A DNA stretch of 40,283 nt from a virus. Taxonomy: Duplodnaviria > Heunggongvirae > Uroviricota > Caudoviricetes. Positions 1 through 33,680 of this stretch are shown here, one piece after another. A program made the position numbers and the translations under genes. The notes beneath the pieces are model-generated. The model was not told the DNA's origin. It searched no databases and saw only the letters and a list, made by a program, of their open reading frames with translations. The DNA lies in IMG/VR virus record IMGVR_UViG_2565956723_000004; one strand, given 5' to 3'. Position 1 is the first letter of the stretch. The number at the start of each line of letters is the position of its first letter.

Positions 1-1215
1 TTATTTTTCAACCTCTGACAGGGGTAAGTAATGAGATGTCTGTAATGTCAAACTCTCTATCTCAAAGGAAATGTTGCTGATATTTTGACCTGCAAATTGC
101 GGATGCCACTCAGCGCCAGGGAATAACATTTCCGCAGAAGTAGCAACTATAGGGTCAATAGCATTAAGATAATGTAACTTATCAGGTGCGCTGTGTAACA
201 GTAACCACTGCAACTCCACTGAAGGATTTGTAAAATGTTCTAATAAATGAAAGTTATTATGTAGTACGCTTAGTAAAAAACTGGTTTCGTATACTTCCGT
301 TACATATTTCCACCCCTGATATTCAGGTGTATTTTCATAAACAATACCCATACCTTCACAATCACTATGTCGAACTGCTTGTGGTGATAATAGTTGCAAA
401 AGAGACAAAACATCGTCCGCATATTTTTTAACTGGATGACGATTTTGCTTACCTTTTATTTGATCAATTTCAAGTGAATCACCAACAACATTGAGAGCAA
501 TAGTAACATGAGGAATATTATTATTATCACGCAAACTGAATAACCGTAATTTATGTTGCTCAATTTGATTTGCATAATACTCACCATAACCACCGGTAAG
601 ATTTTTTCGATCATCAAACTGGCCTACGCAATGTTGCATATGCCATGATTCATAAGCCATTTCACGACGAAGGTTCGAATGACTGGCATCAAACTCAACA
701 ATTTTTCCGTCTGGCACATCAAGTATTGACTTTACAGTATTTTGTTCACTCGGCTGCCACCCTTTCTCGCGTCGTTGAAGCATCTTTTCATGCTCTTCTT
801 CACGCATTCTGAACGCAACGTAGCAGGTTATGCGCTGTAGTTTTGATTCCAGACGGGTACCACATTTCCTGGAAAGAAATTCCACCAACTCCCGTTCTTT
901 GGTTAATATTTGTTGATGATCGGTTTCGATATAATAAAGTGTCGCAGTTGATACTGAGGCAGTATTAAACTTCGATACCAGCCATTCCGGGATTACATCA
1001 TCATTTTTATTAAACAGTGAATATTCTGCAAGCGAGTTAATTTGTTGCACCATTGGAAAGTCACTAATTAGCCATCGATAAAAATGGTTGAGTAACCATT
1101 TTTGGATGGTCTCATTATCCTGGCGAAACAGACTTCTTTGCAAAATTGCTGTTTTTACTTCCGGGGCATTAATTACATCCCTTGCATTATAATTCTGGTG
1201 AATATTTCCAGTCAT
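1..1215 (-). CDS. Hypothetical protein, 404 aa, AT-rich; possibly PcfJ-like (tentative)
   Basis: Complete ORF: stop codon is the first 3 nt of the window, ATG at 1213-1215. Visibly AT-rich. Family guess rests only on recall of an HCVG-containing motif (ESWHMQHCVGQF), not on a search. Confidence 0.55.
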   Translation of the reverse strand: MTGNIHQNYNARDVINAPEVKTAILQRSLFRQDNETIQKWLLNHFYRWLISDFPMVQQINSLAEYSLFNKNDDVIPEWLVSKFNTASVSTATLYYIETDHQQILTKERELVEFLSRKCGTRLESKLQRITCYVAFRMREEEHEKMLQRREKGWQPSEQNTVKSILDVPDGKIVEFDASHSNLRREMAYESWHMQHCVGQFDDRKNLTGGYGEYYANQIEQHKLRLFSLRDNNNIPHVTIALNVVGDSLEIDQIKGKQNRHPVKKYADDVLSLLQLLSPQAVRHSDCEGMGIVYENTPEYQGWKYVTEVYETSFLLSVLHNNFHLLEHFTNPSVELQWLLLHSAPDKLHYLNAIDPIVATSAEMLFPGAEWHPQFAGQNISNISFEIESLTLQTSHYLPLSEVEK

Positions 1216-1702
1216 AACATCCGCCCGTGTTTATTATATCACTCAAAGCAATAATTGTTGACTATAGATTTTTTATCTAAATCAGCATGGTTGCAGGTAC
1301 ATACTCAAGTAAGCCACTCAAGAAAATAACGTAAACTCAATAGTGGCAGCGTCACAAACTTTGGAAATTATGTCTTATATTTGCAGTTTATTTTAGTGAA
1401 TAATTGAGATAAATGACATTATTTTACATCCTCAATAATTCAGGCTGTAAGAGGACGGCAAATACATTCATAATTATCAGGGGATGAACATTCAGGAAAG
1501 TAGTCAGTATCGTCAACTTTTTCTTTTATCACTACATGAAGATTTCGTGTAGATACTCCCATCTCTGCCACTTCTCCCCTCACATTTACACTGGAGCTAA
1601 ACCCGCCGATTGCGCTACAATGCCCGCCCTTAAAGTGGGGGCACTCCCCTAACCGCTTCATCAGGTGAAGCGGCTCTGACCTGTCATCAGAACGAGAGAA
1701 TT

Positions 1703-3064
1703 ATGTTTAAACCGGAACTCCTTTCCCCGGCGGGAACGCTGAAAAATATGCGTTACGCTTTCGCTTATGGCGCAGATGCTGTTTATGCGGGCCAGCCGCG
1801 TTACTCCCTGCGTGTACGCAACAACGAATTCAACCACGAAAATCTTCAGCTCGGCATCAATGAAGCCCACGCGCTGGGGAAAAAGTTTTATGTCGTGGTC
1901 AACATTGCACCGCACAACGCCAAGCTGAAAACCTTTATCCGTGACCTGAAACCGGTGGTGGAAATGGGGCCGGATGCGCTGATTATGTCCGATCCAGGGC
2001 TGATTATGCTGGTGCGTGAACACTTCCCGGAAATGCCAATCCACCTCTCGGTACAGGCTAACGCCGTAAACTGGGCGACGGTGAAATTCTGGCAGCAAAT
2101 GGGTCTGACCCGCGTGATCCTCTCTCGCGAACTGTCACTGGAAGAGATTGAAGAGATCCGCAATCAGGTGCCGGATATGGAGATCGAAATCTTCGTTCAC
2201 GGCGCGCTGTGCATGGCCTACTCCGGTCGCTGCCTGCTCTCTGGCTATATCAACAAGCGCGACCCGAACCAGGGCACCTGCACCAACGCCTGCCGCTGGG
2301 AGTACAATGTCCAGGAAGGGAAAGAAGATGACGTCGGCAACATCGTACACAAGTACGAGCCGATTCCGGTGCAAAATGTTGAGCCGACGCTGGGTATCGG
2401 CGCGCCAACCGACAAAGTGTTTATGATCGAAGAAGCCCAGCGTCCGGGCGAGTATATGACCGCGTTTGAAGATGAGCACGGCACTTACATCATGAACTCG
2501 AAAGATCTGCGCGCCATCGCCCATGTTGAACGCCTGACCAAAATGGGCGTGCATTCGCTGAAAATCGAAGGCCGTACCAAATCTTTCTACTATTGCGCAC
2601 GCACCGCGCAGGTTTACCGTAAAGCTATCGATGACGCCGCTGCGGGCAAACCGTTCGATACCAGCCTGCTGGAAACGCTGGAAGGTCTGGCGCATCGTGG
2701 CTATACCGAAGGTTTCCTGCGTCGTCATACCCACGACGATTATCAGAACTACGAATACGGTTATTCGGTTTCTGACCGCCAGCAGTTTGTTGGTGAGTTT
2801 ACCGGTGAGCGCAAGGGGGAGCTCGCGGCGGTAGCGGTGAAAAATAAATTCTCCGTTGGCGACAGCCTTGAGCTGATGACGCCGCAAGGCAACATTAACT
2901 TTACCCTTGAGCATATGGAAAACGCCAAAGGTGAAGCGATGCCGGTCGCACCAGGCGATGGTTATACTGTGTGGCTCCCGGTGCCGCAGGATCTTGAGCT
3001 AAATTACGCGCTGCTGATGCGTAATTTCTCCGGGGAAACCACGCGTAACCCCCACGGTAAGTGA
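1703..3064 (+). CDS. yegQ: U32-family peptidase YegQ (tRNA hydroxylation protein TrhP), 453 aa
   Basis: Full-length ORF whose translation (MFKPELLSPAGTLKNMRYAFAYGADAVYAGQPRYSLRV...) matches E. coli YegQ as I recall it; cysteine cluster CLLSGY...CTNACRWEY typical of U32 proteins. Confidence 0.93.
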   Translation: MFKPELLSPAGTLKNMRYAFAYGADAVYAGQPRYSLRVRNNEFNHENLQLGINEAHALGKKFYVVVNIAPHNAKLKTFIRDLKPVVEMGPDALIMSDPGLIMLVREHFPEMPIHLSVQANAVNWATVKFWQQMGLTRVILSRELSLEEIEEIRNQVPDMEIEIFVHGALCMAYSGRCLLSGYINKRDPNQGTCTNACRWEYNVQEGKEDDVGNIVHKYEPIPVQNVEPTLGIGAPTDKVFMIEEAQRPGEYMTAFEDEHGTYIMNSKDLRAIAHVERLTKMGVHSLKIEGRTKSFYYCARTAQVYRKAIDDAAAGKPFDTSLLETLEGLAHRGYTEGFLRRHTHDDYQNYEYGYSVSDRQQFVGEFTGERKGELAAVAVKNKFSVGDSLELMTPQGNINFTLEHMENAKGEAMPVAPGDGYTVWLPVPQDLELNYALLMRNFSGETTRNPHGK

Positions 3065-3092
3065 TTAATTTCGATTATTTTTCCCGGATGGA

Positions 3093-3148
3093 AAATTCTT
3101 AGAAACCGATCACATACAGCTGCATTTATTAAGGTTATCATCCGTTTC
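3093..3148 (+). promoter_or_regulatory. Putative cyaR promoter region with a CRP-like half-site
   Basis: TCACA half-site at 3110-3114, centred about 42 bp upstream of the inferred CyaR 5' end; CyaR is known to be CRP-activated. Upstream half-site is poor. Confidence 0.3.
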
Positions 3149-3235
3149 GCTGAAAAACATAACCCATAAAATGCTAGCTGTACCAGGAACCACCTCCTTA
3201 GCCTGTGTAATCTCCCTTACACGGGCTTATTTTTT
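3149..3235 (+). ncRNA. cyaR: CyaR (RyeE) small RNA
   Basis: Sequence GCTGAAAAACATAACCCATAAAATGCTAGCTGTACCAGGAACCACCTCCTTAGCCTGTGTAATCTCCCTTACACGGGCTTATTTTTT matches my recollection of E. coli CyaR, including the terminator hairpin (CCTGTGTAA/TTACACGGG) and T-run. Confidence 0.85.
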
Positions 3236-3236
3236 A
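3209..3236. repeat. Left prophage attachment core (att), overlapping the CyaR 3' end
   Basis: 28-bp AATCTCCCTTACACGGGCTTATTTTTTA is repeated exactly at 39611-39638 and contains the reverse complement of the P2 att core AAAAAATAAGCCCGTGTAAGGGAGATT. Confidence 0.85.
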
Positions 3237-3298
3237 CGCGTAACACAATGAAATAAAAGGATTTATTTCTGGTCACGTCCACACATTGACCACATCGA

Positions 3299-3324
3299 CA
3301 AAAAAGCCCCTCGACTGAGGGGCT
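3299..3324 (-). terminator. Rho-independent terminator downstream of ogr
   Basis: 8-bp stem AGCCCCTC/GAGGGGCT with 4-nt loop (3305-3324), followed on the minus strand by a T-run (A-run 3299-3304 on plus). Confidence 0.6.
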
Positions 3325-3336
3325 TCCTGTTTGTAA

Positions 3337-3555
3337 TTACATCCACATAATTTGCTGCCCTGACGGCAACGGGTGCGGTCTTACGGCGTGGACTTCTCCC
3401 GGCTTCACGATGTATCGCTGTACCGACTCATAAGTGATGAATGTGGCGCTGCAATTCACGTTCTGACACTGGTGATAACGCTCTTTTGTCGTGTCAGTGA
3501 TATAGCGGCTTGTACGCGCATGTGCGGCATGCTGGCATAAAGGACAATGAAACAT
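3337..3555 (-). CDS. ogr: Late gene transcription activator Ogr, zinc finger, 72 aa
   Basis: MFHCPLCQHAAHARTSRYITDTTKERYHQCQNVNCSATF...QIMWM matches P2 Ogr; start taken at the internal Met of the 93-codon ORF. Confidence 0.9.
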   Translation of the reverse strand: MFHCPLCQHAAHARTSRYITDTTKERYHQCQNVNCSATFITYESVQRYIVKPGEVHAVRPHPLPSGQQIMWM

Positions 3556-3636
3556 CGCGAGCACCTCTTCCGGTTTTGTTGATGGTGCCATTTTAGTTAA
3601 TTTATCCTTATAAAACAAACAGATAAATAAATTACA

Positions 3637-4800
3637 TCACTCATCATCTTCTGTTTCGTACTCCACATCAGAAAGCCTGACCTCAAGCTCTAAGGACGTC
3701 GTGAAGCCGCTATTATTCAGAAAATGTGTCACCTTAGTGATTGTCCAGTCCTGCTCGTCTATGACGCGCTTAAAGCCTGATACTTTAACCGGTGTTTCCG
3801 TGTAAATATCAGCACGACCGGTAGCCAGGCTGATGGAGAACTCCGCAACGCCCCGTTGCAGTTTATCCCACTTCGCCTGAGCGGCACGCATGGCCTGTGC
3901 TTTCGTGGCATATACCGTGGTCAGGGCAAAAACGTTGTCAGCCTCACCGGCCATGTATTCACCTTCGCGCGCTTCCGGTACTCTTGGCGCTTTCTTCTGC
4001 CTGACCGGTTTTGCTTTCGGGTGCTCCAGTGCGCGCAGGTGTTTTTCTTTCTTTTTGCGTTTCAGTTTTACCTTCTGCTTTTGCGGCTTCGGGTCTTTGG
4101 TGTGTAACCACTTTGCCGTTACGCCGGTATAGGCTCCACGGTCAGCAATCGCAAAATGATGGCGGTCGCCGTCGCTGCGGGTGATGGTGACCTGCGGGAT
4201 TTTTTTACCGCTGGCCGTCACCCCCTGCCCCGCTTTGAGAAACAGCAGTTTTCCCATTTTTACCGACACCTCACCGCCGTTGCGTTCTGCAAGACGGGTC
4301 AGGAATTTCGCATCAGACTCCTGCGACTGGTCGATGTGCGGAATTTTAATTCCGGCCAGTGACGGAGCGATACTGGCTTCCAGCCTGTTACGGGAGGCAA
4401 TCGCCTCAACAATCGCACCGAGCGTGGTGTCATGCCAGGAGCCTTCCCGGCGGGAATTGAGCGTCCCGCGAAAATCTGCACTCCGGGCGCGGATGGTGAC
4501 CACATCCGGCGCGCCCCGGTGTTCAACCTCATCAACGGTAAATTTCCCTTTGCATACCAGGGCAAAACCTTTCCAGCCGATATACACCGTCAGGACAGCG
4601 CCACGAACCGGCAGCCCGACCTGCCCGTCGGCATCGTTCAGTTCAATATCAAGCTGGTCAGCCTCAAAGCCCCGGTTATCCGTCAGGGTCATGCTCATCA
4701 GACGGTCGCTGATATTGCCGGTAATATCCCTGCTGTCGAGCATCAGCATGTAATCCGGCGTCAGCGTACTGCCTGCATCAAATGTCAGCGCATCCAGCAT
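3637..4800 (-). CDS. D: Tail protein D (late control gene D), 387 aa
   Basis: Length and position as in P2 D, immediately upstream of ogr. Confidence 0.88.
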   Translation of the reverse strand: MLDALTFDAGSTLTPDYMLMLDSRDITGNISDRLMSMTLTDNRGFEADQLDIELNDADGQVGLPVRGAVLTVYIGWKGFALVCKGKFTVDEVEHRGAPDVVTIRARSADFRGTLNSRREGSWHDTTLGAIVEAIASRNRLEASIAPSLAGIKIPHIDQSQESDAKFLTRLAERNGGEVSVKMGKLLFLKAGQGVTASGKKIPQVTITRSDGDRHHFAIADRGAYTGVTAKWLHTKDPKPQKQKVKLKRKKKEKHLRALEHPKAKPVRQKKAPRVPEAREGEYMAGEADNVFALTTVYATKAQAMRAAQAKWDKLQRGVAEFSISLATGRADIYTETPVKVSGFKRVIDEQDWTITKVTHFLNNSGFTTSLELEVRLSDVEYETEDDE

Positions 4801-5279
4801 TATCCCGCCCCCGTCATACCCGTGAATTTAGTCGCCATACTGCCAGCCTTACCGATGAGCGATTCCGCCTGTTTACCGATATCGCCATAAAGCGCGGCCA
4901 GTGATTCATCAACGCGGGTGAGCGACAGCGTAAAATCAATTTTTCGGGGTGTGCCGTCTGCAAAGAAAATACTCCCTGTTTCACTCACCCTGCGGATGAC
5001 ATACATGCCGTAAATCATGCCGGTGCCATCCAGCAACGGCCACGCCCGGCCTTCCTCTGCCATCAGTCTGAGCGTGGTCATCGTCAGCTTTCCGCCGGTC
5101 AGTTCTGGATAAAGCACACCGGCAAGCGTAATGTTTTCCTCACCCACACCGAGAAACTGGTAGGCATCCCGTTTGCCGATACGGGAATTTGACGGCCAGC
5201 GATAATCTGATTCACGCTGCATGGTCTGGTGTGGCAGCGTCTGGCGCATAAAAACAAACATACCTAACGCGAGCATCAT
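4800..5279 (-). CDS. U: Tail protein U, 159 aa
   Basis: Length and position as in P2 U. Confidence 0.85.
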   Translation of the reverse strand: MMLALGMFVFMRQTLPHQTMQRESDYRWPSNSRIGKRDAYQFLGVGEENITLAGVLYPELTGGKLTMTTLRLMAEEGRAWPLLDGTGMIYGMYVIRRVSETGSIFFADGTPRKIDFTLSLTRVDESLAALYGDIGKQAESLIGKAGSMATKFTGMTGAG

Positions 5280-5293
5280 TTTTCGTCACCTCC

Positions 5294-7741
5294 TTAACCG
5301 TCATGCATCATGCTGGCACGGGCGCGCGCACGTTTATCCCGCTCGTATTTTTCGAGCGCATCCTGTAACTGGCGGTCAAGCTGTGTCCCCGGCGCAGTAC
5401 CACCCGTCAGGCTGATGTGATATTCGTTTTTACTCTGGTCCACATAAGAGCGGCCAGCCGGTGCCGTGACCGGCTGATAAGCTTGATAGCCTGCATAAGA
5501 GCTGGTCGCCGGAATATAACCACCGGTGCCATACGTGGCGGCATGAGTTCTGGCGGCGGTCTGGTCAAGTGTGTCTGACTCTTTGTTGATGACCCCGAGC
5601 TTTTCCAGTACCCAGTCAATGCCGCTGCGCAGTTTGTTGAACGCATTAAGCGGCAGCATCAGCGCGTCAGCCAGTGCCTGCCCGAACATGACGCCCGTGT
5701 CACGGCAACGGTTCAGGGTGTCCTGTGTGGCTTTGACCGGGGCAATCAGGTTTTTAAACCACTGCCACGCGGCCTGTAACTTTTCGCCCAGCCAGTCAAA
5801 CACCGGCTTAAGTGGCGTGAACAGTTCCCCCACCGGCGCAAATGCCGCTTTCAGCCCTTCCACCACACCGCCAAAGAATGCGCTGACAGGCTCCCAGTAT
5901 TTACGGATAAGCAACGCACCGGCGACAATGGCGGCCACCACGGCCACAACCGGCCAGCTAATCGCCCCGATGGCCGTCATAACAGCACTGCCAACCGTCG
6001 TGAAGATTGCCCCCATTGCGCCTGCTGCCGCGATGATGGCATTGATGCCAGTGATAACCGGCCAGGCTACGAGGCCAATGGCACCGATGACAGCAGTCAG
6101 CGCCAGTGCACCACCGACAATGAGGCCGATGGTTGACGCCAGTGATTTGTTTTTCTGGATCCAGCCGTCGAGTTTTAACACATACTTTGTGGCCGTCTGC
6201 GTGAGCTTACGCAGTGCGCCTTCCTGCTGGTCAAACAGGTCAGTCCCCACCGCCTCATAAGCGGACTGAAACTCCTTAAAGTCACCGCCGAGGTTGTCCT
6301 GCATGATATTTACCAGCTCGGCGGTCTTCCCGTCTGAGGCTTTAAACGCAGCGGTCAGTTTGTCCAGCTTTCCAGTTGAGGCGGCAGTCATCAGCACGGC
6401 GGCGGCTGAGCTGGCCTCCTCCCCGAAAATAGTTTTCATGTATTCAGCCTGCTGGGCAGTACCGAGCCGGTTTTTCTCAAAACTGGCCTGCATTTCTTTC
6501 AGAATGGTAAATACTGGTCGAGTATTCCCTTTACTGTCTGAGGTTTTCACGCCAAGCTCTTTCAGTGCATCCCATGCTTTTCCCGTCGGTGCCTGCAGGC
6601 GGCTTAACACGGCACGGCTTCCCGTCCCCGCCATTGAACCGGTAATTTTTGCATCATGCAGCGCCCCGACCATTGCGGCGGTTTCTTCAATGCTGACACC
6701 AGCATTTTTTGCCACAGGTGCGGCATAGGTCAGCGCATCGCTCATGCCATCAAAATCGGCGGCGGTTTTGTTCATCGTCATGGAGAGAACATCCCCGATA
6801 TGAGCGACCTTATCGTTTGAAAGCTGAAAGGCGGATTTCATCCCCATCAGCAGGGCGGCGTTTTCTTCCATCGTGCGACGGTTCGCCAGCGCCATATTCA
6901 GCGTGACCGGCGTTGCCGCCTGAATGGCATCAACATCCCCACCGGCTTTCGCAATAATAATCTGCGCACCGGCTGCATCATCTGCCGAGGCTGCGGTATT
7001 GTCGCCGAGCTGGCGCGCCTGCTTGCGTAGTGCAGCCATTTCGGCGGAGTCTTTTGCCACACCGAGCACAGCCTGCAATTCTGAGTTTTTCTGCGCAAAC
7101 TCATAACCGGGCATCAGCAACTTAACTCCGGCCATCGTTCCCGCAGCAGCAATCCCCACACCGGCAGCGCCCACTGAGGCCATATTTCCGGCCAGTTCCT
7201 TTCCGGCCTGATAACGCTGTTTTACTGCGTTAAGTTTTGCCTGTTGTGCACTGACACGCGCCAGCGCGTCACGCTGACGGTTAAGCTGTGCGGTGGTTTC
7301 ACTGATACGGTTTTTCAGTCCCTGCTCATCATGTGCAAGATTGCGGGTATTAATTCCCACAGCGGCCAGTTCCCGCTGCTGGCGTTTAATGGAATCTGTC
7401 AGGCGGTTATATTTCGCCTGTAAGTCCTCCGCCGCACGCTTTGCGGATTCCAGCACTTTCGCCTGAGCACGGGTCGGACGTTCAGTGTTTTTAAACTGTG
7501 TGGCAAGGGCTTCGGCTTCCTGCCGTGCCTTTTCAAGTGCATGACCAGTCACGGCAAGCTGTGCGCTGGTCTTGCGAAATCCCTCAATACGGGATGCGTG
7601 ACCGTTCAGCTCGCGCAGTGATTTTTGTGTTTCCCGGATATCCCCCGACAGCGACTTACTCGCTGTGCGGATGGATTTAAACGGGCGGGATGCCTGGTCA
7701 ACAGCCCTGAGCAATACCTGTAATTTTACATTGTTACTCAT
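5294..7741 (-). CDS. T: Tail tape measure protein T, 815 aa
   Basis: Ala/Gly-rich coiled-coil and hydrophobic segments; length equals P2 T. Confidence 0.9.
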   Translation of the reverse strand: MSNNVKLQVLLRAVDQASRPFKSIRTASKSLSGDIRETQKSLRELNGHASRIEGFRKTSAQLAVTGHALEKARQEAEALATQFKNTERPTRAQAKVLESAKRAAEDLQAKYNRLTDSIKRQQRELAAVGINTRNLAHDEQGLKNRISETTAQLNRQRDALARVSAQQAKLNAVKQRYQAGKELAGNMASVGAAGVGIAAAGTMAGVKLLMPGYEFAQKNSELQAVLGVAKDSAEMAALRKQARQLGDNTAASADDAAGAQIIIAKAGGDVDAIQAATPVTLNMALANRRTMEENAALLMGMKSAFQLSNDKVAHIGDVLSMTMNKTAADFDGMSDALTYAAPVAKNAGVSIEETAAMVGALHDAKITGSMAGTGSRAVLSRLQAPTGKAWDALKELGVKTSDSKGNTRPVFTILKEMQASFEKNRLGTAQQAEYMKTIFGEEASSAAAVLMTAASTGKLDKLTAAFKASDGKTAELVNIMQDNLGGDFKEFQSAYEAVGTDLFDQQEGALRKLTQTATKYVLKLDGWIQKNKSLASTIGLIVGGALALTAVIGAIGLVAWPVITGINAIIAAAGAMGAIFTTVGSAVMTAIGAISWPVVAVVAAIVAGALLIRKYWEPVSAFFGGVVEGLKAAFAPVGELFTPLKPVFDWLGEKLQAAWQWFKNLIAPVKATQDTLNRCRDTGVMFGQALADALMLPLNAFNKLRSGIDWVLEKLGVINKESDTLDQTAARTHAATYGTGGYIPATSSYAGYQAYQPVTAPAGRSYVDQSKNEYHISLTGGTAPGTQLDRQLQDALEKYERDKRARARASMMHDG

Positions 7742-8748: not shown

Positions 8749-9939
8749 TTAATTGCTGTTAACCGAGGTGACCAGATTTGCCAGGTATTTATCGGTAATA
8801 CGCTGGCGCAGGGTCAGGTTTTCAAGAGGAGGCACCGGTGTATAGTCGTAGTCGATATACAGTTTTCCGGCCTTGAGGGTTTCCGCATCGTTGGATTCTT
8901 CGCTGAACCAGCAGGTCGCATCCACGATATAGCCGTTTGTTTTCAGCTCACGGAATTTGGCATTGATGCCGTCAACGATGTCGCGAATCAGCGTTGCGGT
9001 GATGGGCTTGTCCACCGCCCACATGTGCGCCTCAGCCATCGTGTCGGCCATCACCTGCGCGGTGCGGGTGTAGTTTTCAAAGAGGAACAGCGGGTCATCA
9101 GAGCAGGTACGGTTACCCCAGAATCGGAAACCGTCGCGGCGAATCAGCGTAGTGACGCCTGACTCGTTAAGCAGGTCAGCATCGGTGCCGGACTCCTGCA
9201 AATCCCAGAATACAGATGCGCTGATGCCGGTAACACCGTTTACCCCGACGTTGGACAGCGTTTTATGCCAGCCCTGCTCCTGGTCGATTTTAGCGCGCAG
9301 ACCCAGCGCACGGGCGGTGGCATACGCGGTGGCGGTGGTACTGGTGACCGTATCCCATGCGAGGAAATCCGGCCAGATGACCATCAGCTCACGCTGGCTG
9401 AAATTCTGGCGGTAGGCTTTCACCTCGGAAATGGTCTTACAGCCCCATGCGCTGATATATCCGAAAGCGCGCAGCTTCTGACAGACGGATGCCAGTGCAA
9501 CAGCCACCTCTTTGGTATCCAGTCCCGGCACACCGAGAATACGCGGTTTAACACCGGTTACCGACTCCGCCGCCAGCAGGGCTTTTAGTCCGGTGTACTG
9601 ACCGTTTTCGTCGGTGGTGCCGATGATATTGGAAACGGTCTGCGCGAGTTTCGTTTCCTCGTCATCACCGGTGCCGTCTTCCACGCGCACGACAACGGTG
9701 ACCGGTTTTGACTGGTCAGCGATGGCCTGCAACGATGCCGCCAGCGTGCCTTTTTTACCGGCCTTTGCAATTGCGCTTTGCACATTGGTAATCAGCACCG
9801 GTTTATTGAGGGGGAAGGTTTCCGCATCCGCATCGCTGGCCGTGCAGACCATGCCGACAATGGCAGTGGATACGGTGGAAATGACGCGGGTGCCGTCGTT
9901 AATCTCCAGCACCTGCACGCCATGATGATAGTCACTCAT
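8749..9939 (-). CDS. FI: Tail sheath protein FI, 396 aa
   Basis: Length and position as in P2 FI. Confidence 0.9.
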   Translation of the reverse strand: MSDYHHGVQVLEINDGTRVISTVSTAIVGMVCTASDADAETFPLNKPVLITNVQSAIAKAGKKGTLAASLQAIADQSKPVTVVVRVEDGTGDDEETKLAQTVSNIIGTTDENGQYTGLKALLAAESVTGVKPRILGVPGLDTKEVAVALASVCQKLRAFGYISAWGCKTISEVKAYRQNFSQRELMVIWPDFLAWDTVTSTTATAYATARALGLRAKIDQEQGWHKTLSNVGVNGVTGISASVFWDLQESGTDADLLNESGVTTLIRRDGFRFWGNRTCSDDPLFLFENYTRTAQVMADTMAEAHMWAVDKPITATLIRDIVDGINAKFRELKTNGYIVDATCWFSEESNDAETLKAGKLYIDYDYTPVPPLENLTLRQRITDKYLANLVTSVNSN

Positions 9940-10043
9940 CCGTTTAACTCCGTGGTTAATGGGTGCAACTATTTTCTGTTGTGCAGAGCATAAGACGCTA
10001 TTTGACCTGGCTGGTCAGTGGATGAAACAACAGATAAAGAAAA

Positions 10044-10062
10044 GGCGGGCAATTCGCCCGCC
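10044..10062 (-). terminator. Putative terminator hairpin between the cargo region and FI
   Basis: GC stem GGCGGGC/GCCCGCC with 5-nt loop; on the minus strand it is followed by TTTTCTTTATCTG. Confidence 0.4.
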
Positions 10063-10422
10063 TGTCCTGATTTGTACTCACTCATTTTCCGCCTGACAAT
10101 TTACATAGCCCAAATGCTATCAAATCTGACAGTCTGCTTTGAGCGAAAAGTGGACATTAGAGTTACAAAAGCAAGTTTAAATCATCCAAAATATTACAAT
10201 GTCCTTATCTATCTGATATCGTTATGATAAAAAGCTCCTGAATATAATCGATAGTAGGTGGTTATTTCCATGAAATCAATTTTAGAGGTTTTTACTCAAG
10301 GAAATACTAAAGAAAAACTGGCTGTTATCGCCGATCTTGCGTATTACCGTGAAGGAGATCGGTGAGTAACATCGATGGAGATCGGTTCGTGTCACTTTCA
10401 CAGAACCGTTTTTAAATTACCT

Positions 10423-11172
10423 TCACTGATCTCCTTCGGTCAACGGTGATTGTATTTTCCGCATTGATTCTCCTTTAAGTTCGATCTTGATACTGCCATG
10501 AACCAGTCGATCTAGGATGGCATCCGCATGTGTGGAGTCTCCGATCATTTTGTACCAGTTTTCCACCGGCAACTGGCTCACTACGATGATTGAGCCTCGT
10601 TGGTACATCAGATCCACTATTTCCAGCAGGTCGCTACGCTGTTCTGATGAGAGAGGTTCCAGCCCCCAGTCATCCAGAAGCAGCAGATCGCTATTATTCA
10701 GCCTGGTCAAAAGTTTGCTGTATCTTCCATCAGCATGCCCCTGATAGCACTGTTCCATCAGCGCTTTAAGGCGATAATAGTAGACCTTGTATCCCTGTCG
10801 GCAGGCATTATGACCAAGTGCACATGCCAGGAACGTTTTACCGCTGCCGGTGGCCCCGGTCAGTAAAATATTTTGTTTCAGGGTTAACCAGTTTCCCTGA
10901 CTGAGTGAACGGATGAGGGCCCTGTCCAGCCCTCTATTGTTACGATAATCCAGCTTTGATAACTCAGCATTAAGTCTGAACCGTGCATGTTTGATCAGAC
11001 GCTCTGCCTTCCTGTTTTCACGGCAGGTTAGTTCTTCTGCTGTCAGTAATGACAGGCGTTCTTCGAAGCCCAGCTCCTGGTATGTGCCCGGCTGAGCAAG
11101 TTGCTTTTTAAGCGCATCACGGAAGCCGGTGAGTTTAAGTGCGGTCAGTTGTTCGTAAAGATGATTCATCAT
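10423..11172 (-). CDS. istB: IS21-family helper ATPase IstB, 249 aa
   Basis: Walker A GATGSGKT and Walker B LLLLDDWG; overall IstB-like. Confidence 0.9.
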   Translation of the reverse strand: MMNHLYEQLTALKLTGFRDALKKQLAQPGTYQELGFEERLSLLTAEELTCRENRKAERLIKHARFRLNAELSKLDYRNNRGLDRALIRSLSQGNWLTLKQNILLTGATGSGKTFLACALGHNACRQGYKVYYYRLKALMEQCYQGHADGRYSKLLTRLNNSDLLLLDDWGLEPLSSEQRSDLLEIVDLMYQRGSIIVVSQLPVENWYKMIGDSTHADAILDRLVHGSIKIELKGESMRKIQSPLTEGDQ

Positions 11173-11183
11173 TGGATCCCGTA

Positions 11184-12725
11184 TCAGTGGTAATACTCAC
11201 TGCCGCGTACGTTTTCGTGTTCCATCGTGGATAACAGATCTGGTTTTGGATCCTGAACAGGTTGTTTATCCAGACCTTTTTCCAGGATCGATTTAATACC
11301 TGACAGACGCCATACCTTTGTTTTCAGAGCTCTTGCACATGCTGCATTAAGTCTGGCTTTACTGTATTTTTTATGAAGGTTCAGGAGTCCAAGGCAGAAG
11401 CGATAGCTTTGTTCCGGATGTGGACGAGAGTTCAGTATATGAAGCACATAACTATGAGTTTCACTGCCTATGTGCCCCGCCCATTCCAGAAGACGCTCTG
11501 GCGTCCAGGTGGCATGCTGTCGATGAGCTTCAGGCATGTGCTCGTTGCGGGTACTGTAGCCATAAGTACGCTTGCGCGGGTGCACAGCAACCTCCTGCCC
11601 CTGATTGAAGAGTCTTACCAGTTCTCCGGAGATCCATGCTTCCAGTTGCTGGCCTAACAGCGAACATGGAACCGAGTAGTAATGTTTGTCGATTTCCACG
11701 TGGTAATCGGCATGAACTCTGACTTTCTTCACCAGGGTGTAACTGTAACTGGCTTCAGGAAGAGGCTTCAGTGCGGGTTTATCAAGCTGGATGAAGAGTT
11801 CTGCACGTGAATAACCCAACTTCTGCATTATTTTGTTATTCAGTCTTTCCAGCAACTCCCGAATGCGCTGATTAAGCGATGCAAGGCTGTAGAAGATCTC
11901 ATGCCTGATTCGGGCCATGATCCAGCGTTCAACAACCTGAACGCCAACTTCAGCTTTGGCTTTATCTTTCGGTTTACGTGGCCGCGCAGGCAAAACTGCG
12001 ACATTATAATGCTCAAGCATCTGCTGGTAGGTAGGGTTAACGTCAGGATCATACTTACATGCCCTGGATGTGGCGCTTTTCAGATTGTCCGGAACAACAA
12101 GTTCAGGAACGCCACCCAACCACTGGAAGCAGCGAACATGACTCATCACCCAGTCTTCAAGCTGCTGAGACCAGGTGGCCTCTGCCCATGTGTAACTTGA
12201 TGCCCCGAGAACAGCTACGATGACCTGAGCAGTTCTTATTTCTCCGGTCTCAGGGTCGGTAACGCCAACGGTAGGTCCACAGTAATCAACGAAAAGTTTT
12301 TCGCCAGCTTTATGTACCTGACGCATTGATGGTGAAGTGGTTTTGAGCCATTCACGGTACATCCGGCAGTAATGGTTATAGCTGTAAAAACCGCCTGGAT
12401 TACGCTCACAGTATTCTTCCCAGAGTAGCTGCAGCGTCACGCATTTATTACGCAGTTCCCGGTGTACTGTAGCCCAGTCAGGCAGAGAGTGCTTCTTCAT
12501 CTTAACCTGGGTCTGAAGGAACGCATGTTTTAGTTTTGTATCATCCCATCCTGTAGGTAAGGGCCACTGCTTTATGCCAAGTTGAGCCGCCCGATTAGCA
12601 TATCTGGATACAACGGAAGGGGAGATTGCAAGACTACGACCAATTTGTCGATGGCTGAGTCCAACACCGTATTTAAGCCTAAGAATTTCTTTAAGTTTTC
12701 TCATAGAAATTGGAACTGTTGGCAT
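11184..12725 (-). CDS. istA: IS21-family transposase IstA, 513 aa
   Basis: N-terminal HTH (LSHRQIGRSLAISPSVVSRY) and IstA-like core, immediately upstream of istB on the same strand. Confidence 0.88.
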   Translation of the reverse strand: MPTVPISMRKLKEILRLKYGVGLSHRQIGRSLAISPSVVSRYANRAAQLGIKQWPLPTGWDDTKLKHAFLQTQVKMKKHSLPDWATVHRELRNKCVTLQLLWEEYCERNPGGFYSYNHYCRMYREWLKTTSPSMRQVHKAGEKLFVDYCGPTVGVTDPETGEIRTAQVIVAVLGASSYTWAEATWSQQLEDWVMSHVRCFQWLGGVPELVVPDNLKSATSRACKYDPDVNPTYQQMLEHYNVAVLPARPRKPKDKAKAEVGVQVVERWIMARIRHEIFYSLASLNQRIRELLERLNNKIMQKLGYSRAELFIQLDKPALKPLPEASYSYTLVKKVRVHADYHVEIDKHYYSVPCSLLGQQLEAWISGELVRLFNQGQEVAVHPRKRTYGYSTRNEHMPEAHRQHATWTPERLLEWAGHIGSETHSYVLHILNSRPHPEQSYRFCLGLLNLHKKYSKARLNAACARALKTKVWRLSGIKSILEKGLDKQPVQDPKPDLLSTMEHENVRGSEYYH

Positions 12726-13258
12726 AGGTATCCTTTACCGGAATGGCAAAAGATACAGATCAACACACCTGTGAAGTTCCAATAACATTGATGGAGATCA
12801 CTGAATAACAAAATGAGTCAAAAGTGATCTCCATCGATGTTATTCAGCGATCTGTTCAAATGTTATTACCCGATCTCGATGGAAGTTATTGAGTGATCTC
12901 CTTTCATGAAAATACGCAGCCGATCTCACAACCATTGCGGGAATATCGATTGCAACTATTATTGCTGGTTTGTTAACCCTAGTTGCAAAAACAGATAAAC
13001 TAGATGTTGGAAATCTGTTTGGAGTTGTCATAATATCTCTGCTCGGATTGGCTGGTGTTTGCTGTTTTGTGGCCTTATTTATTTGGGTTATAACCCAAAT
13101 GTCTAAACCATGGGGAACACCTCGGGGGGTTCAGCCCTTAGTTAAGTGTGCTATTTCCCTTATCTTTATCTGTATGTTTTTGCTGGCTGTCTTTACATTT
13201 TATGAGTTTATTTCTTCGATGAGCATACGCTATTGAATATAAAATCAGCCCCCATAAC

Positions 13259-13843
13259 TTAAAAGAGACCTTCTATATCGACTTCAATGCCCAAATAACG
13301 GACTGTGCTTTCCAGTTTCTTATGGCCCAACAGAAGTTGGATCCCCCGGAGACTCTTGGTTTTCTTGTAGATTAAGTAAGGTTTTGTTCTTCTCATGGAA
13401 TGTGTGCTGTACAGCGAATCTTCGAGACCAAGCTTTTCTACCCACCCATGAAAAATTCGGTTGTATTGCCGGGTTGATATATGGTGGTTAGTTCCGACCC
13501 GAGAGCGGAACAGGAAGCCTTTACTATGCCAGTTGCCGAGCTTTATCAATGCAGTAACCGCTTCCCTTGTCCCTTTGGTTATCTCAAATTGGACAGGGCT
13601 GCCGGTTTTCTGTTGCAACACCGTTGCTCTGCTTGAGACAGAACTGCCATATGCAGCATCTGATACTTTGAGTTTGACCAAATCACAGCCCCGTAGCTTA
13701 GTGTCCAAAGCCATGTTGAACAGAGCTAGATCGCGTGTTTTACCTTCCAACTCAAGTCTAATCCGGATCCCCCAGATATGAGATATCTGAAGTGGCCTTT
13801 TTTGACCGATGGTACGGTCTTTATTCCACGGTGACGTTTTCAT
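13259..13843 (-). CDS. Small tyrosine recombinase, FimB/FimE-like size, about 194 aa
   Basis: Catalytic signature: Arg in TKLRGCDL, HSMRRT (H-x-x-R), LLGHKKLESTVRY (His and Tyr nucleophile). Start taken at MKTSPWNK with AGGAGA Shine-Dalgarno 8 nt upstream; the ORF track extends to 13945. Confidence 0.75.
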   Translation of the reverse strand: MKTSPWNKDRTIGQKRPLQISHIWGIRIRLELEGKTRDLALFNMALDTKLRGCDLVKLKVSDAAYGSSVSSRATVLQQKTGSPVQFEITKGTREAVTALIKLGNWHSKGFLFRSRVGTNHHISTRQYNRIFHGWVEKLGLEDSLYSTHSMRRTKPYLIYKKTKSLRGIQLLLGHKKLESTVRYLGIEVDIEGLF

Positions 13844-13949
13844 ATTCAAATCTCCTGCAATGTGGGAGATTTGAGTATGGTTGTCTCTCAAGAGCGAAAA
13901 TAAGTCAACTATCACTAGTTGTTGCGCATGTACGTATTCTGTCAATTAA

Positions 13950-14792
13950 TTATTGACAATCATCAATTCTGGAATGATCAAAATCATCATATCGAATTAT
14001 AGTCTGGTTGACTGTATCTATTGTTGGTGTCATTTCTGTTATAATATCCTGATAACCTAAAGAGTTAAATACATTTACTAAGGCCTCACACCGAAGGGCC
14101 GTAGCAATTACAAAATTATAAATTGCCAGCCGTTTATTTTCTTGTTTAACTGCAAGAATGAATTCGATAGCAGTATTTTCATCACTTTGGATTGCATTAT
14201 ATAGAGATACTATATTTACCATATCATCAGAGAATGTATGTATTGAATCACAAAGAGGAACGTAATGGGCATGATAGTGTGTTTCCCAGCCAATTAATTC
14301 AAAAAGTTTTCTGGTTCCTGGATATTCAGGTGTATTTGGCCACAATCTATTAAATAGATCAGTTAGTTCTTTTCCCATGCGAATCCTTTCATTTGCTGCT
14401 GGATTAGTCATTCCTTTGGATTTTAAACACTCCAGCCACCGTTTTCCATTACTATGAACTAATTTCTTACTAGCCTTGAGTAATGCTTGTGCATTTTCGC
14501 CATCATCTATTGCTATATAAAATTGATTGGCAGCCTGTTCTATTATAACCCTAGCTAATACTTCCGATGCTGAAAAGGCTCCTATATTCAAAGAAGAGAT
14601 AGCCTGATTACTAAGTTCATTCAGTACATTAAAGTACTGTAAGACCATCAATTTTTGTTCCACACCCTTTAGGTTGTCTATTTTATTTTTATGCTCCTCA
14701 AATTTTGCATGGATATATTTATTTATCGCGGCTATTTTTTTTACATCTTCGTCAAGATCAAACGGGCAACGTCCAAACAATTCTTTTTTCAT
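13950..14792 (-). CDS. Hypothetical protein, 280 aa, AT-rich cargo gene
   Basis: Complete ORF with CAGGAG Shine-Dalgarno 7 nt upstream of ATG; no motif I can assign. Confidence 0.7.
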   Translation of the reverse strand: MKKELFGRCPFDLDEDVKKIAAINKYIHAKFEEHKNKIDNLKGVEQKLMVLQYFNVLNELSNQAISSLNIGAFSASEVLARVIIEQAANQFYIAIDDGENAQALLKASKKLVHSNGKRWLECLKSKGMTNPAANERIRMGKELTDLFNRLWPNTPEYPGTRKLFELIGWETHYHAHYVPLCDSIHTFSDDMVNIVSLYNAIQSDENTAIEFILAVKQENKRLAIYNFVIATALRCEALVNVFNSLGYQDIITEMTPTIDTVNQTIIRYDDFDHSRIDDCQ

Positions 14793-15213
14793 ATATTTCT
14801 CCTGTTGTACAAGCTTCCATAAGTTGGCAGATTATACACTGAAGATTACCTATAAATAGCTGTGCGGGATAGCAGATCAGTGCAAGAAGTACAACCAAGT
14901 GAACTGTGCGTATTCAGATACCTGGCCTAACGTTCGCGATAGCCGTCCCCTGCACGAAGCCATATATTAGATGTATTAGCTCAGACCTTATCTGACAGGT
15001 TGAGTAGGTAGAATCTAATCAAAGCTGACAGTCTGGTTTGGACTGTGAGTTCAACCGATGGATGCAACACACAGCGATCTACGGACATTACTAGCATAGC
15101 TGTGTATTAATCATCGGGAAGCAGGTCAGTCCGCTCCTAGCACAGAGCAGACTGTCAGATTAGGCTTTACTCTGTGCTATAGATACGTTAGCTCACTCCA
15201 GAGATCATACAAC

Positions 15214-15741
15214 TTATTGCGGCATTTCCGGCCATTCAGGATTTGCAGGATCCACACGGCTGACCAGAACACTGTAGCGTTCCCATGCTTCCAGTCGGCT
15301 ACGCTCATCATCTGTTGCCATATTCAGTCTGACAGAGCGTTCCAGTGGCTGAATGATAGTTTCAGCTTCGGAAAGCAAAGCTGACTTCTGTAATTCCGCC
15401 AGTTGCAGCTGTTCGTCTGCCGTATAAATCCGCTTAATCACGGCACCATCCTTAAACATCCATTTACCTGAGTCATCAGCACGTCGGTTGGCGGTAATAT
15501 CAGGAACCTCGACAACGCTAAAACCTTCAGGGTTGAGCGTTGAAGCATCTCTGGTGATGCCGACAATTATATTATTCTCATCGTAAACAATCTTTATCGT
15601 GTCTTCCTGAAAATTACTTACTTCCTCATACCAGTTTTTTCCCTCTTCGGACCATAACCAGATAACATCAAAATTTTTTGTCAGTTGATATTGGGCAACA
15701 GTTTTTGGATTACCCGCAGTAATATTTTTTAAATGCTGCAT
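15214..15741 (-). CDS. G: Tail fiber assembly protein G, 175 aa
   Basis: Length and position as in P2 G, downstream of H. Confidence 0.85.
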
Positions 15742-20906: not shown

Positions 20907-21039
20907 AAGATCTAGCATGCTGCTGAGAACTGATGAGAACAATAAAAGAGTGTTTTTCTAAGGTTGACACAACACTCCATTTGAAGTGAATATAATGATT
21001 ACTTAACTGGCAAAAAAACATCCTCACTAATTGGAGCCA

Positions 21040-22131
21040 ATGGATACACGCATGTCAGACATTCTAATTACTTATGATGAACGGAAAGATAAATTTGAGT
21101 CCTATGCCCTTACTCTTAAATCGTTATTAACCACGTTAATTCGCAATGAAAAAATTTCAATTCACTCACTTGAATCAAGAGTTAAAACAAAAAAAAGCCT
21201 TGAAGGTAAGATTAATAAAAAGGGAAAATACAAGTCTATAGATGATATTACTGATATCGTTGGTATCAGGATCATCACACATTATGCTGATGATGTTGAT
21301 AAGATAGCTGCTATAGTTGAAAAGGAGTTCACCATTGACCAAGAGAACTCTATTGATAAAAGAACCTCAATTGCGCCTGATAAATTTGGTTACCTATCAC
21401 TTCATTATATAGTAACTTTAAACTCAACCAGAACAAACTTAAAAGAATATGAAGTATATAAAAACATCAAAGCCGAATTACAAATACGATCAATCCTTCA
21501 GCATGCCTGGGCGGAGATTGAACACGACATTGGTTATAAGTCGGCCACAGGACTGCCTAATGAAATAAGAAGATACTTTTCACGCTTAGCTGGTCTTTTA
21601 GAAATGGCCGATGATGAATTTATTAAAATCAGAAAAAAGATTTCTGAACGGCAGAAAGAGGTTGCAAAAGAACTAGAGCAAGGAACTAGTGATTCAGTTT
21701 TAGATATTTTCACTTTGGATGAATTCTTAAACACAAGTCGAATTATGAGTGAACTTTCAGAAGAGATAAAAGAAAAAACAGGAATCACAGTACATGGCCG
21801 ATACAAGGATAAAGATTTGGGATACCTACTAAATGGTTTAAACCTAGCCAACATAACTACAATAGAACAACTCAATCAAAAACTCTCACAAATGAAAAAG
21901 CAGATCGTAGATAGAATATTCTGCTTCGGAGAACCATTTATTAATTATTGCAGAGAAACCCCCATGCCAAAAGAAGCTCTTTTGAGTTATTTATGTCAAA
22001 TTATCGTTGCGTTTCAAAACTCACCTTCGTTAGAATCTGAATTTAATAACAAAGCAGGTTTAAATCTGAAAAACAGCAATATCTCCGATTTTTTCTCGAA
22101 TATAAGAGAAAACATAAGCACACAACCTTAG
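21040..22131 (+). CDS. RelA/SpoT-domain nucleotidyltransferase (toxic small alarmone synthetase-like), 364 aa, probable CapRel-like fused toxin-antitoxin
   Basis: Synthetase-domain motifs RVKTKKSLEGK, DIVGIRIITHY, GYLSLHYIV, ELQIRSILQHAWAEIEHDIGYK; about 170 aa of C-terminal extension; AT-rich; opposite strand to flanking late genes. Start 21040 (ATG after GGAG) is uncertain; ATG at 21052 is an alternative. Confidence 0.8.
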   Translation: MDTRMSDILITYDERKDKFESYALTLKSLLTTLIRNEKISIHSLESRVKTKKSLEGKINKKGKYKSIDDITDIVGIRIITHYADDVDKIAAIVEKEFTIDQENSIDKRTSIAPDKFGYLSLHYIVTLNSTRTNLKEYEVYKNIKAELQIRSILQHAWAEIEHDIGYKSATGLPNEIRRYFSRLAGLLEMADDEFIKIRKKISERQKEVAKELEQGTSDSVLDIFTLDEFLNTSRIMSELSEEIKEKTGITVHGRYKDKDLGYLLNGLNLANITTIEQLNQKLSQMKKQIVDRIFCFGEPFINYCRETPMPKEALLSYLCQIIVAFQNSPSLESEFNNKAGLNLKNSNISDFFSNIRENISTQP

Positions 22132-33564: not shown

Positions 33565-33680
33565 CGTTTTCACCTTTTTCAGTATAAATTTGCACACATT
33601 ATTAGCAACATAATTATCAATAGTTAACACATGTAGATAAACAGCAATTTTACTATTATGCAACAAATTAAATCAGATGT

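Follow-up and report, generated by a model that had tools for sequence, protein, structure and literature searches.

The window analyzed here is a stretch of 40,283 nucleotides (nt) from a P2-like E. coli prophage (IMG/VR virus record IMGVR_UViG_2565956723_000004), and the S88 prophage is 100% identical to it over the region in question, which is the accessory locus between the tail genes G and FI. All tail genes of the window are carried on the minus strand. Read along this strand from the tail-fiber assembly gene G (15214-15741) to the tail sheath gene FI (8749-9939), the locus holds an open reading frame (ORF) of 280 amino acids (aa), a spacer of 106 nt, a tyrosine recombinase of 194 aa and a convergent gene for a small membrane protein. 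An earlier note on this DNA had placed the 280-aa ORF (13950-14792) between FI and G, where P2 carries Z/fun, with a recombinase of about 194 aa following 106 nt downstream on the same strand. These positions were correct: the gap runs from 13844 to 13949, the ATG of the recombinase lies at 13843, and the placement of the cargo agrees with the S88 annotation and with a comparison with phages vB_EcoM-12474III and Wphi. The 280-aa gene is also as AT-rich as had been stated (GC content of 0.33-0.36 vs about 0.45-0.52 in the flanking tail genes), and both genes do represent accessory cargo, bordered by two kinds of short sites, A and B, that are common to other cargo types. The locus is ordinary hotspot cargo, made up of an uncharacterized gene and a crippled recombinase.

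The 280-aa protein, in which the earlier note could place no motif, belongs to a family that does exist. It matches Pfam DUF5677 (PF18928) with 40.1 bits against a cut-off of 27.1 over residues 50-194, it is assigned to phrog_4167, and all of its homologues carry PF18928. The subfamily is small, with 11 clusters among 5.8 billion proteins and 52 representatives at E < 1e-3 among 1.8 billion. Four residues (R81, E85, Y173 and H185) are invariant when 35 members are aligned, and no histidine follows the invariant arginine by 4-6 residues as in the HEPN catalytic motif Rx4-6H. The AlphaFold2 model is confident (predicted local distance difference test score, pLDDT, of 94.5) and consists of ten helices, an all-alpha fold with a possible, weak resemblance to HEPN domains; a Foldseek search of the model against the PDB and BFVD gave no significant match. 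NCBIfam holds nothing for DUF5677, single-sequence searches of the PDB with either protein of the locus returned nothing useful, and neither protein matches any system component of PADLOC-DB 2.0 at E <= 1.

The DUF5677 gene has an upstream region (14793-15010, minus strand) that travels with it and is about 89% conserved in a lambdoid copy. Within it, positions 14831-14836 spell a perfect TATAAT, and the ATG at 14792 is preceded by an AGGAG Shine-Dalgarno sequence. The TATAAT may serve as part of a promoter, even if a consensus scan made no call there. A homologue of 87% identity is found in Rac-like lambdoid prophages adjoining an AAA ATPase/HNH pair, while homologues of 41-53% identity are either solitary after lambda-P-like replication genes or lie beside SMC/Cap4-nuclease and methylase/ATPase genes, without an adjoining recombinase. 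DUF5677-type genes thus occupy other prophage accessory sites, some of them near defense genes, and these contexts identify DUF5677 as a stand-alone accessory gene of prophage hotspots. The best reading of the window is that the gene is a payload that brings along its own upstream region. The prophage probably expresses it for lysogenic conversion or against other phages, and it may possibly encode a HEPN-like anti-phage effector.

The second gene of the cargo (13259-13843, minus strand) encodes a small tyrosine recombinase that consists of the catalytic domain only and is truncated at its 3' end. It was listed as an ORF of 228 aa at 13259-13945 with a TTG start, which is an upstream extension; the family alignment sets the start at the ATG at 13843, preceded by a GGAG Shine-Dalgarno sequence. 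The protein matches Pfam PF00589 with 62.3 bits (cut-off 27.1, E 6e-17). Two features reported for it from the sequence were borne out. It has a complete catalytic set, namely R (KLRGCDL), K (QQKTG), HxxR (HSMRRT), H (LLGHKK) and Y (VRYLG), and it has no N-terminal phage-integrase domain, since the stretch ahead of the catalytic domain amounts to only about 35 residues and matches no N-terminal or core-binding domain of Pfam. It falls below the cut-offs of the models for XerC and XerD (41.8 bits vs 335 and 22 vs 330) and for IntI (17 bits vs cut-offs of 265 and 435). With a profile of the family, the only relatives of solved structure are Xer catalytic domains, of which XerD is the best PDB match (E 4.5e-7).

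Although the recombinase of the window is 92% identical to P0012, its C-terminus reads GIEVDIEGLF before the stop codon vs GIEVDDALEISESIEV in the family, and the conserved last 11 residues are gone. The family tail, DDALE(I/M)(S/A)E(S/Q)(I/T)(E/D)(V/I), follows GIEVD in about 75 members from other genomes and in 17 of the 17 non-window sequences aligned. Homology to all relatives stops at 13277, and the stem-loop and A site that follow the gene elsewhere are missing from the window copy; the window holds no second copy of this 3' site or of the palindrome in the recombinase leader. This palindrome (15-9-15, 13841-13879, minus strand) covers the Shine-Dalgarno sequence and the ATG and is present in a single copy in the window. 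The hairpin is conserved across the family in 11 pairs, two of them with compensatory changes, and is likely a translational, operator or auto-regulatory control element. Immediately 5' of it lies a decayed B site (13880-13903, minus strand) of the sequence GACTTATT-TTCGCTCT-TGAGAGAC, for which the family consensus is GTCCGCTC-CTCGCTCA-TAAGGGAC, and its cassette-side arm is lost. Because the C-terminal tail, the 3' A site and the cassette arm of the 5' B site have all been lost, the recombinase of the window is most likely an immobile relic that is co-inherited with DUF5677. Similar decay is seen at sister loci in which DUF5677 is intact: the recombinase carries frameshifts and stops in E2348/69, is frameshifted in L004 and is reduced to a stub of 153 nt in IHE3034. 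The repeated decay of one gene next to the intact other indicates that the pair is not an obligate two-gene module.

The borders of the cargo are defined by the A and B sites. These are related imperfect palindromes of 24 bp with an 8-8-8 layout, in which the inverted arms GTCCGCTC and GAGCGGAC surround an 8-bp spacer. Site A reads GTCCGCTC-TGTGCCAG-GAGCGGAC and site B begins GTCCGCTC-CTCGCTCA, the spacer coming in two flavors, TGTGCCAG for A and CTCGCTCA for B. The hotspot border on the G side is an A site at 15129-15152 (minus strand; GTCTGCTC-TGTGCTAG-GAGCGGAC). The P2 backbone reaches to 15130, the cargo takes over from 15128, the match to vB_EcoM-12474III and Wphi sets in at 15130/15137, and homology to a lambdoid cassette ends at 15129. 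The border on the FI side is a B site at 10132-10155 (minus strand; GTCCACTT-TTCGCTCA-AAGCAGAC), with the backbone resuming at about 10146-10160, and its outer flank AGCAGACTGTCAGATT is an inverted repeat of the G-side flank AATCTGACAGTCTGCT. Furthermore, a degenerate B site with a remnant of the P2 FI-side flank (TTGAACTC-ACAGTCCA-AACCAGAC plus TGTCAGCTTTGATTAGATTC; 15011-15054, minus strand) lies 74 nt inside the cargo and forms with the A site the inverted repeat I4. No Rfam family was detected at 9900-15400.

The same sites delimit the cargo of other P2-like phages. A scan of IMG/VR with the G-side flank found 118 P2-like stretches, of which about 60 allowed the two borders to be placed. 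Across these contigs, at least 32 mutually dissimilar cargo types lie between A, which ends in GAGCGGAC-RTT on the cargo side, and B, which begins with AAY at the cargo and continues as GTCCGCTY-YTCGCTCA-AAGCAGAC. Orientation is constant among the copies of any one P2 cargo type. When the P2 pattern set is left aside, IMG/VR yields 45 matches with perfect arms, of which 40 had an A- or B-type spacer, compared to about 1.7% expected by chance.

The recombinase is a member of a very large and highly conserved family of proteins of about 200 aa (e.g., WP_001305361 of E. coli Nissle) with 7,988 matches in the first search. Its members are 60-99% identical across 80 genomes of Gamma- and Betaproteobacteria, more than 80 columns are invariant in an alignment of 18 of them, and 970 of 5,426 complete E. 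coli genomes carry a homologue with 88-90% nucleotide identity. What is conserved across contexts is a block composed of the gene, about 65 nt on its 5' side containing a B site and about 45 nt on its 3' side containing a stem-loop and an A site. This block was seen in Nissle, AR434, Ec-FL1-1X, Providencia, an integrative and conjugative element (ICE) and 80 genomes of other genera. On the sense strand, the 5' flank of the intact recombinase reads AAC-GTCCGCTC-CTCGCTCA-TAAGGGAC, which is B, and its 3' flank is a GC-rich stem-loop followed by CAGCAGCC-CTGTGCCAG-AAGCGGAC-GTT, which is A. Homology between recombinase loci ends at the outer ends of the two sites, and the neighbors of intact copies are unrelated between loci. 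They include an arsenic-resistance operon in the ICE, a LysR/aldo-keto-reductase block in a Providencia island and NUDIX, MFS and LysR cassettes in Buttiauxella; in the islands and lambdoid prophages of E. coli they are ETEC_3214, PD-T7-1, HEC-08 and a protein with a CBS domain. The Providencia block (LysR, two aldo-keto reductases, hydrolase, flavodoxin, glutathione peroxidase and the recombinase) measures 6.5 kb and is flanked by directly repeated A-type sites, right after the P4-type integrase gene of the island (1100-7644 in loci L012-L017).

Divergent clades of the family repeat their own site variant within their own loci, with arm and spacer variants such as TGTGCCAGAAGCGGAC in enteric bacteria vs CGGCCAGAAGCGGCC in Pseudomonas. 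The 3' flank of the recombinase has a near-copy more than 800 nt away in 13 of 64 loci vs 8 of 256 random windows. An ungapped 16-mer test for inverted flanks in 79 loci was weak overall, with seven loci at 13/16 or better; its start-codon heuristic was inconsistent, the motif AACGTCCGCT still recurred at about -65, and the conclusions rest on other alignments. In a set of distant members from Pseudomonas/Stutzerimonas and relatives (L071, L079, L080, L087, L102 and L103), near-perfect inverted repeats enclose the gene: the 20 nt that follow the stop codon are found again, in inverted form, about 685 nt upstream, with 20 of 20 positions identical in L080. The locus L104 is similar by the 16-mer test (15/16).

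In several genomes the sites are arranged in arrays. On the recombinase-sense strand, the island of Nissle 1917 (L024) presents A, a HEC-08-like gene, B, the recombinase, A, the ETEC_3214 gene and B, and continues with a hypothetical gene, an adjacent pair of B and A separated by 19 nt, a TonB-receptor/ABC operon and B. The lambdoid prophage of AR434 (L025) and the Buttiauxella locus (L037) likewise show alternating A and B, with junctions of B, 18 or 19 nt and A between gene-sized units. A second hotspot is found in three Rac-like lambdoid prophages with the common flanks hokD and DUF977/ydaV, where the cargo between B and A differs from one prophage to the next and measures 984 nt, 5.3 kb and 5.4 kb; its members are L025 (7377-12787 in AR434), L277 and L278. 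Known or candidate defense genes such as PD-T7-1 and HEC-08 are among the neighboring cassettes. For example, the validated defense gene PD-T7-1 adjoins an intact recombinase at the Rac-like hotspot of AR434, and a LA2681-family HEPN protein adjoins a recombinase pseudogene at that of NWU_1.

Cassettes have also been shared between elements with borders at these sites. The unit 13277-15129 (1.85 kb), which comprises the DUF5677 upstream region, DUF5677 and the recombinase, is present at about 89% identity in an E2348/69-type lambdoid prophage, and its right end coincides exactly with the border that the A site gives the P2 slot. The lambdoid copies (L002/L027) likewise retain the remnant of the FI-side flank of P2, and because of this remnant the cassette probably moved from a P2-like phage to a lambdoid prophage. 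In another case, a cassette of 1 kb is common to a P2-like contig (L188) and the recombinase locus of Erwinia aeris (L036) at 92% identity, and in both the homology begins right after A and ends right before B. The arms of the B site at the cargo end of L188 and at 5170-5200 of L036 are GTCTGCTT/AAGCAGAC and GGCAGCTT/AAGCTGCC, respectively, and differ by two compensatory changes. These changes hint that arm complementarity, and thus a hairpin, may be under selection.

Collectively, these results make it fairly probable that the window contains a cargo at the Z/fun position in which a slot delimited by A and B holds DUF5677 as payload together with the relic of a conserved junction recombinase that is not an invertase. 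With more reserve, and at somewhat below even chances, we propose that the recombinase family supplies the enzyme so far missing from a widespread cassette exchange, similar to that of integrons and dif modules, by which accessory and anti-phage genes would move between unrelated elements. In this proposal, which we hold just as tentatively for its parts, the A and B sites would define the slots of P2-like phages (Z/fun), Rac-like lambdoid prophages, islands with P4-type integrases and ICEs, and the window would be the one sampled P2 cargo type that has kept the enzyme, if in crippled form. Outside the window, the recombinase gene does sit inside a B-to-A junction between cassettes in these four kinds of element. 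To judge from this anatomy, the family most likely serves to catalyze site-specific exchange of the DNA between A and B sites. The enzyme would act in trans and rarely, because the recombinase is found in one of at least 33 P2 cargo types and is missing from about 80% of E. coli genomes.

Several points weigh against this proposal. The rarity just mentioned is one of them, as the window's own cargo type is the only one of the P2 set with a recombinase and most E. coli genomes have none. The recombinase and the sites are linked by association in sequence, with no recombination event observed, and two pattern scans of IMG/VR found no empty P2 slot. The spacers of A and B differ and the sites are inverted when read towards the cargo, A being of one kind with the reverse complement of B, so classical excision between A and B is not expected. 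In the cassette of L188 and L036 the whole sites stay with the platform, and the covariation of the arms could equally reflect a hairpin with a structural role or the action of a different enzyme. As to the payload, DUF5677 is a candidate only. In the single published test that was found, a Bacillota DUF5677 gene that was expressed in E. faecalis and challenged with six phages was outside the five of nine candidates that were protective (preprint, PMC12632615).

Some of these points favor a different explanation, in which the recombinase with its inverted sites is a selfish mini-element or a passenger and A and B are structured intergenic elements used by another recombinase (e.g., host XerCD or a phage enzyme) or serve as short patches of homology in homologous or illegitimate recombination. 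Imperfect terminal inverted repeats of about 16 bp (AACGTCCGCTYCTSGC at both outer ends) bracket the gene as in an insertion sequence (IS) or a REPtron, and most hotspots have sites without a recombinase in cis. The arms covary with complementarity kept, which suggests a hairpin, and the A and B spacers are not the same. However, a gene of 600 nt that is kept at 60-99% protein identity over two proteobacterial classes, and always with the sites, argues for a functional link between them, illegitimate recombination would not give breakpoints of such precision and recurrence, and sites of 24 bp are short for RecA-dependent exchange. To our knowledge, A and B bear no resemblance to dif or cer, which also counts against this explanation, and we regard it as rather unlikely. 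It is very unlikely that DUF5677 and the recombinase form an obligate two-gene defense system with the recombinase as sensor, effector or regulator. The two genes are adjacent on the same strand, and the 1.85-kb unit that they form was transferred as a whole between P2-like and lambdoid elements, and in Bacillota DUF5677 is among the domains reported to be enriched next to serine recombinases (preprint, PMC12632615). Yet DUF5677 homologues at 41-53% identity do without the recombinase, the recombinase has decayed in three lineages that retained DUF5677, dozens of unrelated genes are found as neighbors of this same recombinase, and neither protein is recognized by PADLOC.

The earlier note had raised the possibility of a FimB/FimE-like invertase that flips a promoter or gene segment, with the 280-aa gene as part of a phase-variable defense or exclusion module. 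The recombinase is indeed a small tyrosine recombinase with a catalytic domain only, an inverted repeat is present in the spacer between G and DUF5677, and the A and B sites around the cargo are formally inverted when read towards it. Against the NCBIfam model for tyrosine-type DNA invertases (NF007371), however, it scores 20 bits (E 4e-4) where the cut-off is 222, and the inverted repeat (15022-15049/15134-15161) is nothing other than the hotspot A site and the degenerate remnant of B. No inverted pair brackets an invertible segment, and the palindrome at 13841-13879 is unique in the window. All 40 copies of the cargo compared, 36 from complete E. coli genomes and 4 from full-length viral contigs, show the same collinear order, and no cargo type was found in both orientations among P2-like contigs, which included about 50 duplicates. 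The enzyme has lost its end in the window, and sister loci with intact DUF5677 have it as a pseudogene or in deleted form. A decayed recombinase and the lack of detectable inversion were the very outcomes which that note had named as speaking against its idea, and by these measures the idea largely fails. The invertase is therefore highly improbable and the phase-variable switch was rejected; what remains of the proposed module is an uncharacterized AT-rich accessory gene whose relatives lie beside defense genes elsewhere. Least probable of all, to the point of being negligible, is that an ordinary integrase of a phage or island has decayed to the fragment seen here as the recombinase. It is short, lacks arm-binding and core-binding domains and has a 3' end unlike that of its relatives, but thousands of members are about 200 aa long, and the window copy is down only the last 11 codons. 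This candidate was rejected, as the full-length family is itself of that size.

Several further features of the window were noted, the first of them within the cargo itself. The small membrane-protein gene, which is convergent with the recombinase and encodes 125 aa when intact in S88, is split in the window. Its 3' part (phrog_4155) lies at 12919-13236 on the plus strand and its first 68 nt at 10270-10337, separated by an IS21-family insertion at 10338-12918 (minus strand) with an 8-bp target duplication. The insertion contains istA (11184-12725), istB (10423-11172) and terminal multiple repeats at 12781-12908, and it is peculiar to the strain of the window, as neither S88 nor any of the other 35 genomes with the same cargo has it. 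Beside the ogr end of the prophage, the small RNA gene CyaR/RyeE is found at 3147-3232 (Rfam, 100.7 bits), which suggests integration of the prophage beside cyaR. A 644-aa protein (31732-33666, minus strand) is encoded between the portal gene and the replication gene A, which is the classical old/tin hotspot, and matches the PADLOC candidate PDC-S39 (E 1e-84). A 366-aa ORF (21031-22131) occupies the P2 orf30 position between V and S on the opposite (plus) strand; it weakly matches the PADLOC candidate PDC-S33 (E 1e-16), its homologue in S88 is annotated as a GTP pyrophosphokinase, and no A or B sites were found flanking it.

The region between G and FI is a known hotspot where genes gained by horizontal transfer, many of them anti-phage, accumulate (Rousset et al. 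2022, PMC9122126; NAR 2026, PMC13586616). A survey of thousands of P2/P4 elements left open by which mechanism genes are exchanged with other mobile elements, as transposons were lacking and homology was too low, and considered illegitimate recombination as perhaps responsible (NAR 2026, PMC13586616). In other work, small serine recombinases were found to mark variable defense genes, while with tyrosine recombinases as baits defenses were not reliably found across phyla (PLoS Biol 2026, PMC13552941). The literature searched contains no small tyrosine recombinase tied to the G/FI hotspot and no account of the sites described here, and the cassette-junction recombinase system appears to be undescribed in it. 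A 2004 study of the variable regions P2 Z/fun and tin/old by Nilsson, Karlsson and Haggard-Ljungquist (Mol Biol Evol 21:1) proposes site-specific recombination in its title, and the repeats at Z/fun may have been noted there already.

The proposed cassette exchange would offer a candidate answer to the question of how defense and accessory genes hop between hotspots of unrelated mobile elements. It rests on the presence of 24-bp sites at every cargo border examined, on a conserved recombinase in the same junctions and on cassettes that are common to different phage types and genera. If it is true, the borders of cargo could be predicted and new defense genes could be mined between the sites, the modular evolution of prophage immunity would be explained, and the compact pair of recombinase and site could be used as a tool. 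The lesson of the window itself is modest: DUF5677 is a candidate lysogenic-conversion or defense gene, and its neighbor is most likely a relic rather than a switch.

Compared to known systems, the locus and its relatives show both likenesses and differences. FimB/FimE, MrpI and HbiF are, like the recombinase of the window, tyrosine recombinases of about 200 aa that consist essentially of the catalytic domain. However, the window recombinase fails the model of FimB/FimE and is accompanied by neither an invertible promoter element nor orientation variants, and its family is separate, much more conserved and far more widely distributed. The serine recombinases that mark defense genes are similar in being small recombinases beside variable defense genes, but they belong to another enzyme class.

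Acinetobacter plasmids carry dif modules, in which inverted XerC/XerD sites (pdif, 11-6-11) enclose the cargo and the host enzymes XerC and XerD act on them. The likeness lies in cargo units between two short inverted recombinase sites, in the recurrence of the same module in unrelated replicons with borders at the sites, and in a mechanism that has been deduced from anatomy. In contrast to these modules, A and B have no relation to dif, and the A/B arrays carry along a small Xer-like recombinase of their own.

The similarity to integrons is found in gene-sized, often promoter-less cassettes that are arranged in arrays between short imperfect-palindrome sites, with a tyrosine recombinase gene at an array junction. 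As in integrons, A/B cassettes begin with RTT and end with AAY next to a site, and the cargo is accessory and includes anti-phage genes. There are clear differences as well. The window recombinase is not an IntI, as its scores indicate, and with about 200 aa it has no core-binding domain. The A and B sites, which are putative recombination sites, are not attC but 24-bp sequences of the 8-8-8 type with two spacer flavors. Furthermore, the A/B arrays reside inside phages, prophages, islands and ICEs, and their cassettes can comprise more than one gene, in either orientation.

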